Virus genome (UHGV): UHGV-1484817
Length of the DNA stretch: 64,000 nucleotides
Source: a virus
Strand: one strand, 5' to 3'
Position numbers and translations under genes: made by a program. The notes beneath the pieces were generated by a model. That model was not told where the DNA came from. It worked only from the letters and a program-made list of their open reading frames with translations, and did no database searches. Positions 24,109 through 55,551 of the stretch are shown in pieces; the stretch's first letter is position 1, and every line of letters begins with the position of its first letter.

Positions 24109-25140
24109 CTAGTCGCCATCTTCCAGCAGGCGCACCATTGCCCCCGTTTCACTATCCAGGTTACGAATGTAGTTCATGACAATATTTACGTTGGTCCAGC
24201 CACCAGCTTGCATGATCTCCGGTATTGAAACTCCGGCGCGGGCCATATCTCGCGCGGCACCGACACGGGCACTATGTCCAGACCAGGCCAGGTATCGCTG
24301 ACCAGAGTCATCTTTTGCCCCGTAAATCAATCGGTGAGTTGCTTCAAAAATCCCTTCCAGGGCGCGAGTTGATAGCTGGCTGGTGGATGATGGCGCGGCA
24401 ACACCATTTTTTCTGACCCGGCAAAACAGGTAGTTATTAGGATCATCAGCTACACCAGAGACAGAAATCCATCGCTCGACCAGTTTAGTTACCCCCAGGC
24501 TAAGTGCCTTCTCTACACCTGCGGCGCTAACCAGCGTTTTCGTTCTGCCAATATGGATTAACATTCTCCCACCGTCAGTACGTGAGATATCTTTAACCCT
24601 GATCCTGGCAATTTCTGCTATACGTAGCAGGGTATTATAAGCAATCCCAAGAAATGCCAGATTACGTATATCCTGGCAGCGATCGCTATTTTCCATGAGT
24701 GAACGAACCTGGTCGAAATCAGTGCGTTCGAACGCCAATGCCTGTTTTGCACGCTCACCGGCATCAACGTTTTCTTTTCGGATCCGTCGCATGACCAGTG
24801 AAACAGCATTGCTGTCACTTGGTCGTGGCAGCCCGGACCGACGATGAAGCATATTTAGCTGGCCCAAATGTTGCTGGATAGTTTTTACTGCCAGACCGCG
24901 CGCCTGAAGATATAGAAGATAATCGCGAACATCTTCAGGTTCTGCGGGAAACCATTTCCGGTTATTCAACTTGCACCATGCCGCCCACGACCGGCAAACG
25001 GACAGAAGCATTTTCCAGGTATGCTCAGAAAACGCCTGGCGATCCCTGAACATGTCCATCAGGTTCTTGCGAACCTCATCACTCGTTGCATCGACCGGTA
25101 ATGCAGGCAAATTTTGGTGTACGGTCAGTAAATTGGACAT
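24109..25140 (-). CDS. cre: Cre site-specific tyrosine recombinase
   Basis: 343 aa beginning MSNLLTVHQNLPALPVDATSDEVRKNLMDMFRDRQAFSEHTWK, recognised as Cre; starts about 420 bp from loxP. Confidence 0.98.
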   Translation of the reverse strand: MSNLLTVHQNLPALPVDATSDEVRKNLMDMFRDRQAFSEHTWKMLLSVCRSWAAWCKLNNRKWFPAEPEDVRDYLLYLQARGLAVKTIQQHLGQLNMLHRRSGLPRPSDSNAVSLVMRRIRKENVDAGERAKQALAFERTDFDQVRSLMENSDRCQDIRNLAFLGIAYNTLLRIAEIARIRVKDISRTDGGRMLIHIGRTKTLVSAAGVEKALSLGVTKLVERWISVSGVADDPNNYLFCRVRKNGVAAPSSTSQLSTRALEGIFEATHRLIYGAKDDSGQRYLAWSGHSARVGAARDMARAGVSIPEIMQAGGWTNVNIVMNYIRNLDSETGAMVRLLEDGD

Positions 25141-26293: not shown

Positions 26294-27145
26294 ATGATAA
26301 ATTATGTCTACGGCGAACAACTGTACCAGGAGTTCGTCAGCTTCAGGGATCTCTTTCTAAAAAAAGCTGTTGCACGCGCCCAACACGTTGATGCCGCCAG
26401 CGACGGTCGTCCTGTACGCCCGGTTGTCGTTCTGCCGTTCAAAGAAACTGACAGCATTCAGGCTGAAATTGATAAATGGACTTTAATGGCGCGGGAACTG
26501 GAACAGTACCCAGACCTCAATATCCCAAAGACTATTTTATATCCAGTGCCTAACATCCTTCGCGGTGTGCGTAAGGTTACGACTTATCAGACAGAAGCTG
26601 TGAACAGCGTCAACATGACTGCTGGCCGCATTATTCATCTGATTGATAAGGACATTCGCATCCAAAAAAGCGCGGGGATCAATGAGCACAGTGCGAAATA
26701 CATAGAGAACCTGGAAGCAACAAAAGAGCTAATGAAGCAGTACCCGGAGGATGAAAAATTCCGTATGCGTGTACACGGCTTTAGCGAAACAATGCTGCGC
26801 GTCCACTACATTTCCAGTAGCCCTAACTACAATGATGGTAAATCAGTTAGTTACCATGTGCCACTGTGTGGCGTGTTTATCTGCGATGAAACTCTCCGTG
26901 ATGGAATTATCATCAACGGTGAATTCGAAAAAGCAAAATTTAGCCTTTATGACTCCATAGAACCGATCATCTGCGACCGCTGGCCGCAAGCAAAAATATA
27001 TCGCCTGGCAGATATTGAAAATGTAAAAAAACAAATTGCCATCACTCGCGAAGAGAAAAAGGTTAAGTCAGCCGCATCAGTTACGCGCAGCCGTAAAACC
27101 AAGAAGGGGCAGCCAGTAAACGACAACCCCGAAAGCGCGCAATAA
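26294..27145 (+). CDS. c1: C1 repressor of lysis
   Basis: 283 aa, the size of P1 C1; sits beside loxP/cre and the operator cluster; sequence recognised as C1. Confidence 0.95.
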   Translation: MINYVYGEQLYQEFVSFRDLFLKKAVARAQHVDAASDGRPVRPVVVLPFKETDSIQAEIDKWTLMARELEQYPDLNIPKTILYPVPNILRGVRKVTTYQTEAVNSVNMTAGRIIHLIDKDIRIQKSAGINEHSAKYIENLEATKELMKQYPEDEKFRMRVHGFSETMLRVHYISSSPNYNDGKSVSYHVPLCGVFICDETLRDGIIINGEFEKAKFSLYDSIEPIICDRWPQAKIYRLADIENVKKQIAITREEKKVKSAASVTRSRKTKKGQPVNDNPESAQ

Positions 27146-27148
27146 ATT

Positions 27149-27170
27149 ATGCCCGGCATCAACCGGGCAT
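27149..27170. terminator. Bidirectional hairpin between convergent c1 and the ant-like gene
   Basis: ATGCCCGG-CATCAA-CCGGGCAT in the 32-bp gap. Confidence 0.5.
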
Positions 27171-27177
27171 TCTTCCA

Positions 27178-28290
27178 TTATTCAGCCGCCACCGGTTTTA
27201 ACAAGCCAGCATCGAGCAGTTTACGCGTCAACCACTGCTGGCCTTTACCCGTTAATTGAGGCGTCAACCGTATCTGGTAGCCATCTTCATCATCCAGCAC
27301 CACTTCTTTCACCGTGAAATACCCCGCGTTGATGTACTGCTGGAACGGCACATTTTTACGTCCACCGGACGCTATCAGGATGCCGTTCTCCCGTAACCAG
27401 GCAAACAGCGCGTTTTGCTTAAGTCCAACAACCTTTGCAAAATTCCCAATCAGGATCCCTTTAGCTACTGATACCCGGTCGGCAAAATCGACCTTAGGAG
27501 CGGCGGCTACCAGCTGCTGATTTAGCTGGTGGGCTTTCTGTTCCAGAAGCTGCTTTTGTTCAGCCAGTTCGGCAGCCAGGCGTAGGGCTTCTGGTAATGT
27601 TTGGGGGATTGCAACCGGTTGCTGTTCTTTTTGCCGGAAGTAGCTGTCTTCCAGTTTTTCAAAGAATGCCCATGCTTCATTTGTGTCCACGATCTTAGAC
27701 ATGCGTGCAGCGCCGCGCTCTGTCCAGAGTGTAAGGCTTCTGGCGTTCTTACCAACAGAGTAACTTCCGGTTACTCTGTTCTTAAATTCTCTTAATTTTA
27801 AACCAGTTAGAAGAAAGTAATGCTTACCTTCTTCAAAGCGGTCAAGGTTGCGAGACAAATTGTTGCGAATATTGGCTTCATCGACCCCATACCCTCTAGC
27901 AAGAGTTTCGGTTGTCACGACACGTACTCCCTGCCATTCCAGAACGGGAATTTCATCCGGCTGATTCTGAACAACCACCAGTTCCGATTCCTGAACTGAA
28001 GGTGCATAAATTTTTTCTGATTTAACGTTAGTTGCTTTCATTCTGTGTGCCTCCTTGCGTGCTTCGGCTGCGACGGTTGCGTAATTCAGATGACCCTGTT
28101 CGAGCAGGTATTCACGGATATCGGTTAGCAGAATGCGGTGAACCGCGTGTTTGTCCTTTCTCCGGTAAAGTTGTTTGGTGATCATGAAGTAGTTGGCAAT
28201 AACGCCCGGTATATCCCTGGTACTGATACAGGCAGTGTGCTGTTCAATTGCCTCGATCATCTCTTCACGGGTGACTAATGACGTTCTCAT
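27178..28290 (-). CDS. Antirepressor-like protein (ORF6N-type region plus KilA-C/Ant C-terminal domain)
   Basis: 370 aa; middle region VVTTETLARGYGVDEANIRNNLSRNLDRFEEGKHYFLL; C-terminal FAKVVGLKQNALFAWLRENGIL...GYF typical of phage antirepressor C-domains; AGGAGGG RBS; ATG overlaps the stop of the upstream small ORF. Confidence 0.75.
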   Translation of the reverse strand: MRTSLVTREEMIEAIEQHTACISTRDIPGVIANYFMITKQLYRRKDKHAVHRILLTDIREYLLEQGHLNYATVAAEARKEAHRMKATNVKSEKIYAPSVQESELVVVQNQPDEIPVLEWQGVRVVTTETLARGYGVDEANIRNNLSRNLDRFEEGKHYFLLTGLKLREFKNRVTGSYSVGKNARSLTLWTERGAARMSKIVDTNEAWAFFEKLEDSYFRQKEQQPVAIPQTLPEALRLAAELAEQKQLLEQKAHQLNQQLVAAAPKVDFADRVSVAKGILIGNFAKVVGLKQNALFAWLRENGILIASGGRKNVPFQQYINAGYFTVKEVVLDDEDGYQIRLTPQLTGKGQQWLTRKLLDAGLLKPVAAE

Positions 28291-28508
28291 AGTCCCTCCT
28301 GAGCAGAAGCGTTAACAGGGAGGCACCAGTAACTGAGAGAATTGCGCGAATCGATAGAAAAGCGGGCAGAGAAAATACAGGGAGCATCCGGAAGCTGAGA
28401 ACGTGCCTCATCTTCTGTCGGTGCAATAACGAAGTGATAGTGACGTTTTTGGCAGGAGTAAAAGCGCCAGATAAATTCAGAATGAGCAGGGGTAGGGATA
28501 GTAGCCAC
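28287..28508 (-). CDS. Icd-like small ORF translationally coupled to the ant-like gene
   Basis: 73 aa; GTG start 8 nt after GGAGG; TGA overlaps the ant ATG (ATGA). Confidence 0.4.
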   Translation of the reverse strand: MATIPTPAHSEFIWRFYSCQKRHYHFVIAPTEDEARSQLPDAPCIFSARFSIDSRNSLSYWCLPVNASAQEGL

Positions 28509-28589
28509 AATGGCAGCCTCCTTTTGCTAATTTAAGGAGCTACCGCGTGAGGTTCCAATCTCAATGGCGGTAGCACTGACTGGGTTGGA

Positions 28590-28670
28590 ACTACCGGCGC
28601 AAAAGGGAACCGGCCTGCCTTTCGGCAGCCCAGCCAGCACTACCATTGATCTCTGAGCTAAACGCTACGT
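28590..28670 (-). ncRNA. Candidate c4-like antisense regulatory RNA in the leader of the icd/ant-like operon
   Basis: Two predicted stem-loops whose loops carry CCCUUUUGC (complement of the downstream RBS GCAAAAGGAGG) and CAAUGG (complement of CCAUUG spanning the GTG start); boundaries are guesses. Confidence 0.35.
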
Positions 28671-28691
28671 ATGGCTGTGCGATGGCATGAC

Positions 28692-28716
28692 ACAAAAAAA
28701 GACGCTTTTGGCGTCT
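28692..28716 (-). terminator. Hairpin plus U-run in the leader (possible attenuator)
   Basis: On the minus strand AGACGC-CAAAA-GCGTCT followed by TTTTTTT, about 130 nt downstream of the promoter. Confidence 0.4.
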
Positions 28717-28848
28717 GTGTCGCCTTTTGCATTATCCGGGGTCTCAATCCCGGCACCCGTTTTAATGAGGTGCCTGATAAGCATAAACCGAAAATGCCTC
28801 AAGGCGCAAGAGGTCAGGTTCAATGTAACATCGGTAGTTAAAAAACAC

Positions 28849-28865
28849 AATTTATTAGAGCAAAT
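28849..28865. promoter_or_regulatory. C1 operator-like site overlapping the promoter of the antirepressor cassette
   Basis: Minus strand ATTTGCTCTAATAAATT with flanking TTGCTC (-35-like) and TAACTA (-10-like), just downstream of the pacB stop. Confidence 0.55.
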
Positions 28866-28867
28866 AT

Positions 28868-30352
28868 TCATTCGTTAAGCCATGCCAGAGCTTCATCAAC
28901 CTGCGCTTCGTCTTCGACGCTAAGCACTTCATCCTGGGGAACATAATCCGCCAGCATAGCGAAACAATATGTATCCCAATGGTCTGGTGAGTGCAGGTTG
29001 AGTTTTTTCTTCATATCCTCCTTACTCATCACCTTCCATTGACCTGCGGAGTTAATCCCTACAGGGATTTTCGACGCTTCCTCAATAGTTTCATTACCCT
29101 TATCCAGTCTCATACGACCAGATTTTACGGCCTCTGCGGCTTGAACGTTGGCATAAGCACGTTTATCAAAGTACAGGCTCTTATCTTCACGGCTATGCAT
29201 CTTTTTACCCCAGCGTATACGCTGTACGGTAATACCATAATACTCGTACATCAGATCCGCCGTTGCTTTACCCAGGCCATCGCCGTCTATCGCTATGGTG
29301 ATATTTGGGAATCGCTCAGGATTACATTCTGCGAAAATTTTGGCGGCAAGCTGCGTTTCTGTAACGTCTGTGTATTCCAGCATTCGATAGTTGATTACAC
29401 GGCGTTTATTTCGCTGGCCGGACACCATCATGATATTGATAACGGACTTATCCCGTCCCGTACCACCAGCAACGTCCACACATGCAAGCCAGCCCCATCC
29501 TTTTGCAATCTTGACTTTCCGCCGCGTTGCACGTTCAACCTCATCACGTCCAAGAAGGAAGCCATCCTGTGATTTAGGGAATAGGCCGCGTACCTTAATC
29601 ATGTACATAGGGTTATCACGCCCGCCGTACTCCGCCAGCTTCATTTTGATAAATGCTGGCGTTACCAACGGTGATTCCTCACTGTTAAGCGTGATCGCCG
29701 TATAAACGCCATCAGGGTTACCAGGACGCTTGGCCAGTTTATGGTGTGTATCGTAGAAATAGCCGCTTGGGCGTGTAGGCTGTGACAGCAATAAGATGCG
29801 GTTATCCTGTCCGGTAAGAGCACCGGTGATGATACCGAAAGCTCTATCACTGACACCGGAGGCTTCATCGATAATATACAGAAGATGATCTGCGTGTTCA
29901 CCGGCGAGAGCTTCTTCACTTCCCAGACGAAAGCCCTTCGGTACTACAGTCCATACACCTTTACCAGTAATCTCATAGAAAGCGGTTTCTGTCAGAACAA
30001 AATAATCAGCAAGCCATGGGAAACGGCTGGTGGCAGTAGCCCAGTTTATCTTGATGTACTTGAATATACCGGTCATTACCTGCTGAATTTTGTTCGCAAC
30101 GATAATGGCACGGGCACCTGGATACATGATTATGAACAACATGATCATGATAGAAGTCATGTCTGATTTCCCGGTACCGTGACCAGACGAAACAGATGTC
30201 TTGCTACCCTGTTCCTGCACAGACTCAATAATCAGATCCTGCTGCCAGGTAGGTGTTTTGCCGAACAAAACATCAGCGGCAGCAATCCAGTCATAACGAT
30301 ATAGCGCCACCAGCTCGCGCCAACGTGGATCCGTTACGCAACTTCTGGCCAT
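28868..30352 (-). CDS. pacB: Terminase large subunit PacB
   Basis: 494 aa; Walker [11 protein letters not shown], Walker [12 protein letters not shown]-terminal nuclease-like region; overlaps the pacA stop. Confidence 0.9.
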
Positions 30353-31545
30353 TAATCATCATCCCCGTATAGCTTGCGGGTAACTTCTTCGTCTTCCTCC
30401 TCGTCTTCGTCCAGGTCTTGTTCCAGCCATGGGTCGTTTGATACACCTTCAGTATCAACATCTCCATAACCGCCTGTATCAACGATATCGGCGATTTCTT
30501 CCCTACGCTGCTCAATCCACAATGCGGCATCGGCGCGGCGGTTGGCGGCCCGTTCTCGCGCAACTTTGTCCAGATCTTCAAGAGAAGGGCCACCGACGGC
30601 TGTTTGCCTTTCCTCATCATCGGTATTGGTCTTAGGAGCACGCAGATCGGCTTTGATTTGCTCCAGCATCAGGGGCGGCACTTTTCCGCCATGCGCCTCG
30701 ATGAATTCAGCTGCTTCCAGCACTGACCAGTTATTTTCACGCTTTCGTTCGTATGCCAGCTTAACAATGCCAGCTTGCCCCATAGATAAAGCGTGCTTTT
30801 CCGCCTCCCGGCTTTCTTTTCGATAGTTATTCCGGATGCTGTAAATGGTGTTGATCAGGCTGCTTATCTGCGCGGAACAGCTGTTTAGCATGCTCGCGAT
30901 ACGATATTCAGGCGGAGTCCCTTCATCATCGTCTTTTTGCTGATCGCGCATTTCCTGCACCAGACGAATACACGTATCCCTGGCATTCTCCAGCATAAGG
31001 AGATGAGAAAGAGACTTTTCCAGAAGAGTGGTTTCCAGAACATCGGCCCCGGACCGACGCAACATAGCGCGCGCAGCCTTCCGCGCTTCAACGTTATCTA
31101 TCAGGTAATCGCCAGCTTCGAATTCAAAGCGTTCACCATCATCATCCAGGGTGTCGCGTTCCAGGCGATCACGTAAGGTCCGGTGGGCGCGGGTGATCAC
31201 GTCATGATCATCAGAACGATCATTTATGCGCTTATTTTGGCGCTTCGCATTCTCGACTGCGGCACTGACAACGGCATTAACCCTTTGTTTTTCCGCTATT
31301 TCAGCCGCAATGTGATCACCTGCATGTTGATCATTAGAGTGATCAATGATCATGCTTTTTAGTGGCTTCCTGACTGGCTTATTTGGCTTGCGGCTGTCCG
31401 CTGTCCTGGTGTCTTCTTTGAAGGCACGGAGATAACGACGTGCAGTATTAGGGTTAAGATTAAACTCGGCGGCATACTGTGCGATGGTGTAACCACCATC
31501 TCGCGCCAGGCGAGCAAAATTCTTCTTGTGATCGTCCCAGGTCAC
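30352..31545 (-). CDS. pacA: Terminase subunit PacA (contains the pac site)
   Basis: 397 aa; N-terminal DNA-binding-like region, acidic C-terminus; GATC-rich pac repeats inside the coding sequence; start appears to be GTG. Confidence 0.9.
31190..31355. other. pac: pac packaging site
   Basis: Three TGATCA-type hexamers at about 31194-31221 and four at about 31313-31352, separated by about 90 bp; matches the published P1 pac architecture of seven hexanucleotide elements. Confidence 0.7.
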
Positions 31546-55475: not shown

Positions 55476-55551
55476 TGGTGGCCCCTACCGGACTTGAACC
55501 GGTGACCGTGCGATTATGAGTCGCCAGCTCTAACCACTGAGCTAAAGGGCC
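55476..55551 (-). tRNA. trnI: tRNA-Ile (anticodon CAU, ileX-like)
   Basis: 76-nt cloverleaf GGCCCTTTAGCTCAGTGGTTAGAGC...CTCATAA...GGTTCAAGTCC...CCA, near-identical in pattern to E. coli tRNA-Ile2. Confidence 0.85.

Follow-up and report, generated by a model that had tools for sequence, protein, structure and literature searches.

Between c1 and pacB in a 64,000-nt stretch of viral DNA (hereafter, the window) lies a cassette that represents a complete and probably functional second immunity/anti-immunity module of the immI type in a P1-like phage-plasmid. What was computed here is the anatomy of the cassette, its homologies, the complementarity and covariation of its antisense RNA and targets, purifying selection on both of its genes, and the coexistence of a canonical immI in relatives; the mechanism is proposed by analogy with P1 immI. 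The cassette is genuine, though no novelty: many P1-like elements have the insertion, it is already in print, and a preliminary description of this DNA, made from the sequence alone, overstated how new it is. Venturini 2019 noted the same insertion in one sentence; our literature search on second immI regions in P1-like elements returned, beyond that, one remark on duplicated c4-icd regions in the D6-like pYU39_89, and no functional study.

In the window, c1 (26294-27145, plus strand) and pacB (28868-30352, minus strand) converge on a gap of 1722 bp. Comparison with the P1 reference shows that 24 bp separate the two stop codons in P1, with nothing between. The gap in the window is filled by a minus-strand unit, and every element that the preliminary description had listed for this unit was recovered in its place. 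That description had given canonical P1 as having pacB next to c1 and immI elsewhere, beside sim and kilA-repL; the reference agrees, with immI at 48-51 kb and none of the cassette genes between c1 and pacB. It had also stated that no kilA-repL follows, and tblastn across the whole 64,000-nt window indeed found no kilA N-terminal region, repL, simC or rlfA. A single icd/ant (tblastn) and a single C4 are present in the whole window, and they map to the c1-pacB gap rather than beside sim and kilA-repL. C1 itself shares 283 of 284 aligned positions, stop counted, with the product of P1 c1.100. The unit is closed by a terminator (27149..27170, minus strand), a G+C-rich hairpin with a 9-bp stem containing 6 G-C pairs, followed by AATTTATT, which sits between the stop codons of ant and of the convergent c1.

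At the other end, a C1-operator-like 17-mer, TTTGCTCTAATAAATTG (28848..28864, minus strand), begins 4 nt past the pacB stop codon. Of its 17 positions, 15 agree with the C1 operator consensus, ATTGCTCTAATAAATTT, and the two at the ends deviate; together with its 3' flank, the element aligns with P1 Oc4/Op51 and OrepL. Sites of this kind with three or fewer mismatches number 17 in the window, versus 0.23 expected by chance. The 17-mer is unchanged in RCS47, 673R5, JL22 and Escherichia albertii p2RM10705; among IMG/VR loci, part of its invariance comes from the search itself, whose pattern contains the operator.

Two candidate promoters follow. The upstream one (28822..28850, minus strand), putatively controlled by C1, has a -35 element (TTGTGT) overlapping the operator, a 17-nt spacer and the -10 element TACATT. 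By positional alignment, it is collinear with the annotated P1 promoter P2c4/P51a (TTTGTAT ... TATCTT), and its match to the sigma-70 consensus, 7 of 12 positions, equals that of the P1 promoter. The second, putatively constitutive (28780..28809, minus strand; -35 TTGCGC, 18-nt spacer, -10 TATGCT), precedes the 5' end of the isrK model by 7 nt. Phage D6 has matching hexamers at the same spacing (TTGCGC-N18-TATATT) upstream of its own isrK/C4, and the downstream promoter may well be the equivalent of P1 P1c4/P51b. Both candidates are weak, and a generic promoter scan of the minus strand of the leader flagged nothing; the assignments rest on collinearity with D6 and the annotated P1 promoters, not on consensus strength. 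The overlap of a C1-operator-like 17-mer with promoter elements, as originally proposed, holds at the sequence level (15/17 match, collinearity with Oc4/P2c4) and suggests that the cassette is under C1 control, with C1 predicted to bind the operator and the promoters predicted to be active.

The leader, from operator to GTG, spans ∼340 nt. It had been described as a structured leader of ∼330 nt, yet it holds Rfam isrK and C4 elements and so is more than structured. An isrK-type leader RNA (28695..28773, minus strand) matches RF01394 with 59 bits (gathering score 50). In its predicted fold, the a1 element UUGAGAC (28741-28747, minus strand) occupies a hairpin loop and b1, GCAAAAGG (28723-28730, minus strand), is single-stranded; a terminator search placed an intrinsic terminator of this RNA at 28694-28716 (minus strand). 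Downstream lies a C4 antisense RNA (28563..28650, minus strand), a full-length match to RF01695 (76.7 bits, gathering score 45, E=3e-13), which folds with −46.4 kcal/mol (z-score −5.25) and ends in a tRNA-like GCCA tail. Its two recognition elements are b', CCUUUUGC (28599-28606, minus strand), in a hairpin loop, and a', GUUCCAA (28585-28591, minus strand), in the single-stranded 3' junction. By analogy, C4 would be processed from the cassette transcript.

Both C4 targets are found on the mRNA. The a2 element UUGGAAC (28552-28558, minus strand) forms 7/7 Watson-Crick pairs with a', and b2, again GCAAAAGG (28520-28527, minus strand), forms 8/8 with b'; b2 overlaps the Shine-Dalgarno sequence of icd, AAGGAGG (28517-28523). 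In the window, b1 also pairs with b' at 8/8 positions, and a1 shows one mismatch and one wobble against a'. The a1 element is perfect against a' in the other 37 of the 38 copies compared. Upstream of C4, where this leader has the isrK-type RNA, P1 instead has RF03163 (c4-a1b1). By sequence, the leader and C4, together with the 5' end of icd, belong to the D6/isrK type rather than to that of P1. Two further open reading frames were considered and rejected as genes: one of 68 aa (28665-28871), which overlaps the isrK-type leader RNA, and one of 81 aa (28265-28510), which overlaps icd. Both are without family matches.

The icd-like gene (28287..28508, minus strand) encodes 73 aa from a GTG start. 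The preliminary description had called it an icd-like ORF with a GGAGG ribosome-binding site, and its product indeed matches P1 Icd (80% identity, E=5e-38) as well as NCBIfam NF033153. The icd stop overlaps the ATG of the ant-like gene (27178..28290, minus strand) in the sequence ATGA. The ant product, 370 aa, had been credited with antirepressor-type motifs; it is 57% identical overall to P1 Ant1 (E=3e-131), and Pfam searches place ORF6N at residues 116-200 and ANT/KilAC at 258-359, so that both the Ant1 and the KilAC homology are strong. Homology to Ant1 is not full-length, however. The ends are homologous, with 64% identity for residues 1-83 and 81% for residues 216-370, and residues 84-215 are only 23.5% identical. 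In the same Pfam search, ORF6N was absent from P1 Ant1. By these alignments, the central domain of Ant is swapped for ORF6N. An internal Ant2-like start, ATG (28039-28041, minus strand), is preceded by the Shine-Dalgarno sequence AAGGAGG (28050-28056) in a context nearly identical to that of P1.

Selection on the two genes was assessed by dN/dS. For icd, it is ∼0.06-0.09. For ant, values are below 1 in every segment; the conserved parts give 0.06-0.12, and the central domain ∼0.4. This domain shows 68-71% identity between cassette types and is 47-64% identical to Stx, lambdoid and Salmonella phage antirepressors.

Operator, promoter, C4, a2/b2, icd and ant correspond one by one to the P1 immI layout, to which the preliminary description had likened the operator, leader, icd and ant; a1/b1 may correspond as well, given the imperfect a1 of the window and a match to isrK rather than c4-a1b1. 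Cassette and P1/P7 immI share the order of these elements, a C1-type operator overlapping the upstream promoter, an RNA of the same Rfam C4 family, two-site a/b antisense pairing with b2 over the icd Shine-Dalgarno sequence, the ATGA coupling of icd and ant, and the Ant1 termini and Ant2 start. They differ in several respects: the cassette sits between c1 and pacB and is a second copy in relatives, its leader is RF01394 with a strong intrinsic terminator rather than c4-a1b1, its C4 recognition sequences are unrelated, and the centre of its Ant is ORF6N.

Phage D6 (orf83 icd/orf82 antirepressor; MF356679, 74.0-75.5 kb) is 94% identical in DNA to the cassette from the promoter through the isrK-type leader and C4 into the 5' end of icd, and its b specificity is the same (GCAAAAGG/CCUUUUGC). 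In contrast, D6 has no P1-type C1 operator upstream, its a'/a2 elements are GUCUCAA/UUGAGAC, its antirepressor is a Rha/Roi/KilA-like protein of 313 aa, and its genomic context is another one. The isrK-orf45-anrP region of Salmonella prophage Gifsy-1 is also similar, in that a small ORF and an antirepressor follow an isrK-family RNA that has a rho-independent terminator of its own; unlike the cassette, this region has a small ORF of 45 aa and no C1 operator. On the Gifsy-1 read-through mRNA, translation of the antirepressor is coupled to that of the small ORF (Hershko-Shalev 2016, PMC4825925). A processed stable RNA downstream of isrK, STnc1160, was likened by the authors to P4 CI (PMC4825925); we take it as the probable counterpart of C4. 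What the system produces is AnrP, and this leads to AntQ and the induction of Gifsy-1 (PMC4825925).

The same site and gene order, with 88-99.7% DNA identity, are seen in RCS47, JL22, vB_EcoM-673R5, pTZ20_1P and hundreds of P1-like plasmids. The arrangement occurs in 270 of 804 matching PLSDB plasmid records, about a third of P1-like elements, and in 251 of 5426 complete E. coli genomes. Across PLSDB, INPHARED and the complete E. coli genomes, the closest matches to the 2.2-kb junction are 99.7% (E. albertii p2RM10705) and 99.5% identical; the p2RM10705 backbone is just 94.5% identical to the window. JL22 is 99.3% identical over a 1.8-kb query. The cassette genes of relatives carry the annotations ant, Roi, Icd-like or 'ash family protein'. 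A candidate link between the 370-aa protein and HK022 Roi, whose name is used in the JL22 annotation, lies in shared ORF6N and ANT domain content.

We compared the C4 and target sequences of 38 independent copies of the cassette. They fall into four fully complementary C4/target types, in which a1-a'-a2 and b1-b'-b2 change together. None of the four can pair with canonical targets of the P1 or P7 type, and the canonical modules of P1, P7, JL22, RCS47, 673R5 and Ro157c2 carry other a/b sequences. Because its C4 cannot pair with the P1/P7-type canonical targets, the cassette would be an independent, orthogonal switch alongside canonical immI. The window copy differs from the JL22-type copies by four compensatory bases, and it alone among the 38 combines a type-A a1 with a type-D a' and a2.

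The preliminary description had left it undecided whether the cassette is extra or relocated. The former applies to checked relatives, since JL22, RCS47 and 673R5 each have the cassette between c1 and pacB plus a full canonical immI-kilA-repL, and phi456 has the full canonical region plus a cassette remnant of 333 bp; the window covers no canonical site of its own replicon. That the cassette is the only copy in this replicon, with the one beside sim, kilA and repL lost, is improbable. Such a loss would fit the window, in which the canonical site is not covered and one icd, ant and C4 are visible, and some P1-derived plasmids, e.g. pE102651_87, do have this copy only. Against it, the canonical region is retained by each of the four sequenced phages that have the cassette, and 38 of the 40 best plasmid matches have at least two matching places. 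We rejected pE102651_87, with its single matching place, as a case of relocation: it is a defective, IS-riddled derivative from which the whole canonical region is gone. Alternatively, the cassette might have no function today and be a duplicate carried along passively, a scar left by recombination. Its ant is shortened in 7 of 26 surveyed copies (full length in 19), phi456 retains nothing beyond its remnant, and laboratory P1 and P7 are without it. We nevertheless give this reading very little credence, as icd is intact (73 aa) in all 26 copies, icd and the ends of ant have dN/dS values far below 1, RNA and targets covary in a compensatory manner across the four types, and Shine-Dalgarno sequences, icd-ant coupling and terminators are all conserved, in a cassette carried by about a third of P1-like elements.

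A further alternative accepts the RNA switch and questions its output. Because the central third of Ant is non-homologous to P1 Ant1 and variable between types, its target could differ from P1 C1; the ORF6N centre would direct it to a repressor of another resident prophage (lambdoid, Gifsy or D6 type) in a form of inter-prophage warfare, or the protein would be a Roi-like DNA-binding protein. The relatedness of that centre to Stx, lambdoid and Salmonella phage antirepressors points this way, as do its being the variable part between cassette types, with a dN/dS of ∼0.4, the annotation of the gene as 'Roi' in JL22, and the 94% identity of leader and C4 to those of D6, which is outside the genus Punavirus and in whose leader no P1 C1 operator sequence occupies the corresponding position. 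On the other hand, the N-terminal 83 and C-terminal 155 residues are those conserved with P1 Ant1, and the internal Ant2 start is kept. The cassette has, moreover, acquired a P1-type C1 operator and promoter, which ties its predicted expression to the C1 regulon, and it directly adjoins c1 in hundreds of P1-like elements. We therefore regard a target elsewhere as unlikely and favor a second immI-type module acting on C1.

In P1, C1 together with C4 controls icd-ant, and Ant1-Ant2 binds C1 (PMC8198154). By analogy, in a lysogen, C1 on the 28848-28864 operator would shut the upstream promoter, and the weaker downstream promoter would keep transcribing the leader. Most transcripts would stop at the isrK-type terminator, and those that read through would be processed to a C4 RNA of ∼80 nt, whose single-stranded a' and b' would base-pair with the mRNA targets a2 and b2. 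We propose that Icd then goes untranslated, because b2 covers the icd ribosome-binding site, and that the Ant1/Ant2-like antirepressor is also not made, as its translation is coupled to that of icd and polarity acts on ant as well. On entry into a cell without cognate C4, including a lysogen of a P1-like prophage with another C4 type, Icd and Ant would be made; Ant, as its homology to Ant1 suggests, would bind and inactivate C1, shifting the balance towards lytic growth. In its details, the regulation may depart from that of P1, because an isrK-type leader precedes C4 and short IsrK acts as an activator in Gifsy-1, where it stimulates translation of the read-through mRNA in trans (PMC4825925). 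By the same analogy, we hypothesize that the cassette leader RNA could activate translation in trans.

A bolder reading, which we put forward tentatively and consider doubtful, is that P1-like phage-plasmids carry two, sometimes three, orthogonal C4/icd/ant switches whose shuffled a/b modules make up a population-level 'immunity code'. The C1-controlled promoter would then serve mainly to produce a terminated, IsrK-like decoy. As C1 falls, this a1/b1 decoy RNA would titrate C4 and free Icd and Ant, and the resulting positive feedback would lock in lytic growth. The window copy would be an intermediate in a change of specificity, with a' and a2 already switched and a1 still unswitched. Such a code, if true, would set which element superinfects and induces which lysogen.

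P1-like phage-plasmids occur widely in E. coli and Salmonella and frequently bear resistance genes such as CTX-M, SHV-2 and mcr-1. Which of them can invade or induce which others is settled by immunity and anti-immunity. At one locus, the four covarying C4/target types amount to a ready natural collection of compensatory mutants on which two-site antisense recognition can be tested. The cassette extends a known mechanism and does not change it. In the textbook picture of P1 and P7, a single immI exists in two specificities. A second antirepressor module, predicted to be RNA-controlled and with a specificity orthogonal to the canonical one, is carried by about a third of natural P1-like elements. 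If this module is functional, the textbook picture understates the system, and heteroimmunity between natural isolates would be combinatorial.

The window comes from a phage-plasmid of the P1-like type (Punavirus). Its C1 protein matches the P1 c1.100 product at 283 of 284 aligned positions, stop counted, and c1 (26294-27145, plus strand) lies between cre (24109-25140) and pacB (28868-30352, stop codon 28868-28870), with pacA (30352-31545) beyond; these last three genes are on the minus strand. In the P1 reference, pacB (end 93206) and the convergent c1 (end 93231) are adjacent, and the immI operon (Oc4, c4, icd, ant1/2) is found at 48.1-49.7 kb, adjoining sim and kilA-repL, in agreement with the preliminary description. 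The pacB-c1 gap is 1722 bp in the window, compared to 24 bp in P1. The heptamer TGAATAA occurs both at the P1 pacB stop and at the window ant stop (window 27146-27185, 28860-28873; P1 segment L004 2700-2740), and ATGCCGG-N8-TATTGCGCGC, just 5' of the c1 stop, is common to P1 and the window. Speculatively, P1 could have reached its layout by deletion from the cassette-bearing form, in which case the P1 state would not be ancestral. Since P1-like genomes carry tRNA genes, we took the three in the window (55479-55551, 57555-57627, 57633-57704 (-); Rfam, 65-75 bits) to be ordinary.

The gap holds a genuine immI-type module (27146-28866), all of whose features are on the minus strand. The operator, leader, icd-like and ant-like ORFs proposed in the preliminary description are all present there, and the ImmI-like reading is supported by homology to Icd and Ant1, an Rfam match to C4, and an operator and promoter collinear with those of P1. 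The C1-operator-like 17-mer TTTGCTCTAATAAATTG (28864-28848) shares 15 of its 17 bases with the C1 operator consensus; across the window, 17 such sites with three or fewer mismatches were observed versus 0.23 expected. Its 3' end is overlapped by a putative promoter, TTGTGT-N17-TACATT, collinear with annotated P1 Oc4/P2c4 (P51a) and with a modest consensus match equal to that of P2c4. About 40 nt downstream is a putative second promoter, TTGCGC-N18-TATGCT (TTGCGC-N18-TATATT in phage D6), which ends 7 nt 5' of an isrK-type leader RNA (28773-28695; Rfam isrK, 59 bits). In the predicted fold of this RNA, a1 (UUGAGAC) occupies a hairpin loop and b1 (GCAAAAGG) is single-stranded, and an intrinsic terminator (28716-28694) ends it.

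The C4 RNA follows (28650-28563; Rfam C4, 76.7 bits, E=3e-13, fold z-score -5.25), with b' (CCUUUUGC) predicted to lie in a hairpin loop and a' (GUUCCAA) in the 3' single-stranded junction. The downstream targets a2 (UUGGAAC, 28558-28552) and b2 (GCAAAAGG, 28527-28520) are perfect complements of a' and b', respectively, and b2 overlaps the AAGGAGG Shine-Dalgarno of a 73-aa ORF (28508-28287) that starts with GTG. Its product shares 80% identity with P1 Icd (E=5e-38) and gives a hit to the NCBIfam phage_ICD_like model. The stop codon of the 73-aa ORF overlaps, as ATGA, the start of the 370-aa ant-like ORF (28290-27178), and a G+C-rich hairpin (27170-27149) separates the latter from the c1 stop. 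In related plasmids such as pS51_2, a CDS that PGAP labels as a 39-aa 'ash family protein' (window ~28527-28646 (-); segment L047, 1928-2047) covers most of the C4 RNA, so that the RNA gene is hidden in database records.

By sequence, the Ant-like protein is a mosaic. Overall identity to P1 Ant1 is 57% (E=3e-131), made up of 64% for residues 1-83, 23.5% for 84-215 and 81% for 216-370. The middle part is a Pfam ORF6N domain, for which a Pfam search gave no hit in P1 Ant1, and is 47-64% identical to antirepressors of Stx, lambdoid and Salmonella phages; the ANT/KilAC domain is common to both proteins. The Ant2 start, in frame within the ORF, and the AAGGAGG ahead of it are nearly the same, base by base, as in P1. 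The cassette as a whole is likewise mosaic, with P1, D6/isrK and ORF6N parts. Operator and first promoter are of P1 type; second promoter, leader, C4 and icd 5' end are 94% identical to D6; and the ant 3' end has 85% DNA identity to P1 ant. Leaders of P1, Ro157c2 and the canonical JL22 module match Rfam c4-a1b1 (RF03163), while those of the cassette, RCS47 and D6 match isrK at the same place.

The preliminary description left open whether the cassette is extra or relocated. The window, which contains one C4, one icd and one ant, is equivalent to JL22 ~1-25 kb and 59-99.6 kb, and the canonical immI site falls outside it. The c1-cassette-pacB arrangement is found in phages JL22 (99.3%), RCS47 (95%, annotated 'ant') and vB_EcoM-673R5 (88%), and phi456 has an IS1-truncated remnant. 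Because all four retain a full canonical c4-icd-ant1/2-kilA-repL module, the cassette is additional in these relatives, not relocated. pE102651_87, a defective, IS-riddled derivative, has the c1-pacB copy only. In phi456 (segment L009, 4079-5194), the last 333 bp of ant remain beside c1, followed by IS1, with pacA and pacB deleted; what survives here is a decayed c1-pacB insertion. In Escherichia albertii plasmid p2RM10705, the c1-pacB cassette is accompanied by a third icd-ant module, which lies close to cre, between res/mod genes and cre (segment L046, 14990-16605); in this region (RD-1), icd-ant homologues are reported for pSvP1 (Venturini 2019, PMC6906374). Phage D6, too, carries a pair of icd-like loci (segment L007, 4117-4327; MF356679, 20806-21177), and a second c4-icd region was remarked on in the D6-like plasmid pYU39_89 (PMC6799933); hence duplicated immI-type modules are not confined to Punavirus.

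Scanning IMG/VR with an exact pattern yielded 36 loci; with the phage loci included, the alignable leaders number 38. C4 segments and targets fall into four classes, within each of which a1/a'/a2 and b1/b'/b2 are mutually complementary, with G-U wobbles in the commonest class only. These are a 673R5-like class (UUGGCCU in a1, UUGGUCU in a2; b, GUCUAAGG; 22 copies), a D6/JL22-like class (UUGAGAC; GCAAAAGG; 8 copies), an RCS47-like class (UUGAGAC; GUCAAAGG; 5 copies) and a fourth type (UUGGAAC; GCAAAAGG; 2 copies). Changes in C4 RNA have their counterparts at two or three distinct target sites, a pattern that is difficult to account for unless pairing is under selection. The window copy is the sole case among the 38 in which a1 (28741-28747, UUGAGAC) is mismatched to a' (28585-28591, GUUCCAA) and a2 (28552-28558) is matched. 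Over the 420-nt leader, exactly four bases distinguish it from the JL22-type and E. albertii copies, and these form two compensatory pairs in a'/a2. The pattern suggests either conversion of a short patch by fourth-type sequence or a copy midway through a specificity change.

Canonical immI modules have a/b sequences unrelated to those of the cassette, and hence the two modules in one genome should not cross-regulate. P1 has UUGACAG/GUUAGUG and P7 UUAGCAG/GAUUGUG. Recognition modules are shuffled here too: canonical JL22 combines P1-type a (UUGACAG) with P7-type b (GAUUGUG), and 673R5 and Ro157c2 pair P7-type a with ACGAAUG and GUACAUG, respectively.

Cassette icd is 73 aa in 26/26 copies, and ant is 370-372 aa in 19/26. 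Between types, dN/dS is 0.06-0.09 for icd, 0.06-0.10 for the Ant N-terminus, 0-0.12 for the C-terminus and ∼0.4 for the ORF6N centre. That centre (27646-28041, codons 84-215) is the variable part, with 68-71% protein identity between types, against 95-100% for the N- and C-terminal parts. This points to exchange or diversification of the centre, which may determine target specificity. Judging from these sequences, the cassette is probably functional.

The cassette is not new, being annotated in hundreds of records and touched on in the literature. When records are counted that cover ≥80% of a 2.2-kb query running across both junctions, the whole arrangement is present in 270 of 804 matching PLSDB plasmid records and in 251 of 5426 complete E. 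coli genomes (any match in 771). Records carry the PGAP labels 'phage antirepressor Ant', 'Icd-like protein' and 39-aa 'ash family protein', and Venturini et al. mention the arrangement in passing, naming RCS47 (PMC6906374). In the literature searched, whose scope left out the RCS47 and P1 genome papers, we found neither a paper on the cassette's C4 RNA, operator or orthogonal specificities nor a functional test of it.

In P1, ant stays silent under the joint control of C1 and C4, Icd prevents cell division, and Ant1 together with Ant2 binds to C1 (PMC8198154). The simplest reading, following P1, makes the cassette a second immI that is orthogonal to the canonical one: C1 is predicted to bind its operator, its promoters to be active, its RNA to be processed and its Ant to bind C1. 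In a lysogen, the cassette's own C4 would silence its icd-ant, and upon entry into a cell without cognate C4, Ant would be made and C1 counteracted. In Gifsy-1 of Salmonella, the short IsrK RNA activates translation in trans (PMC4825925). In the cassette, if C1 fell, a C1-controlled promoter could raise the short isrK-type RNA bearing a1/b1 and so titrate C4, an idea we offer as hypothesis only. The cassette is of interest because its C4 specificities are orthogonal and combinatorial, and because antirepressor switches number more than one in a large fraction of P1-like elements in nature. Two orthogonal modules would make an element less easily excluded through RNA immunity, and a resident with two could silence incoming modules of either type.
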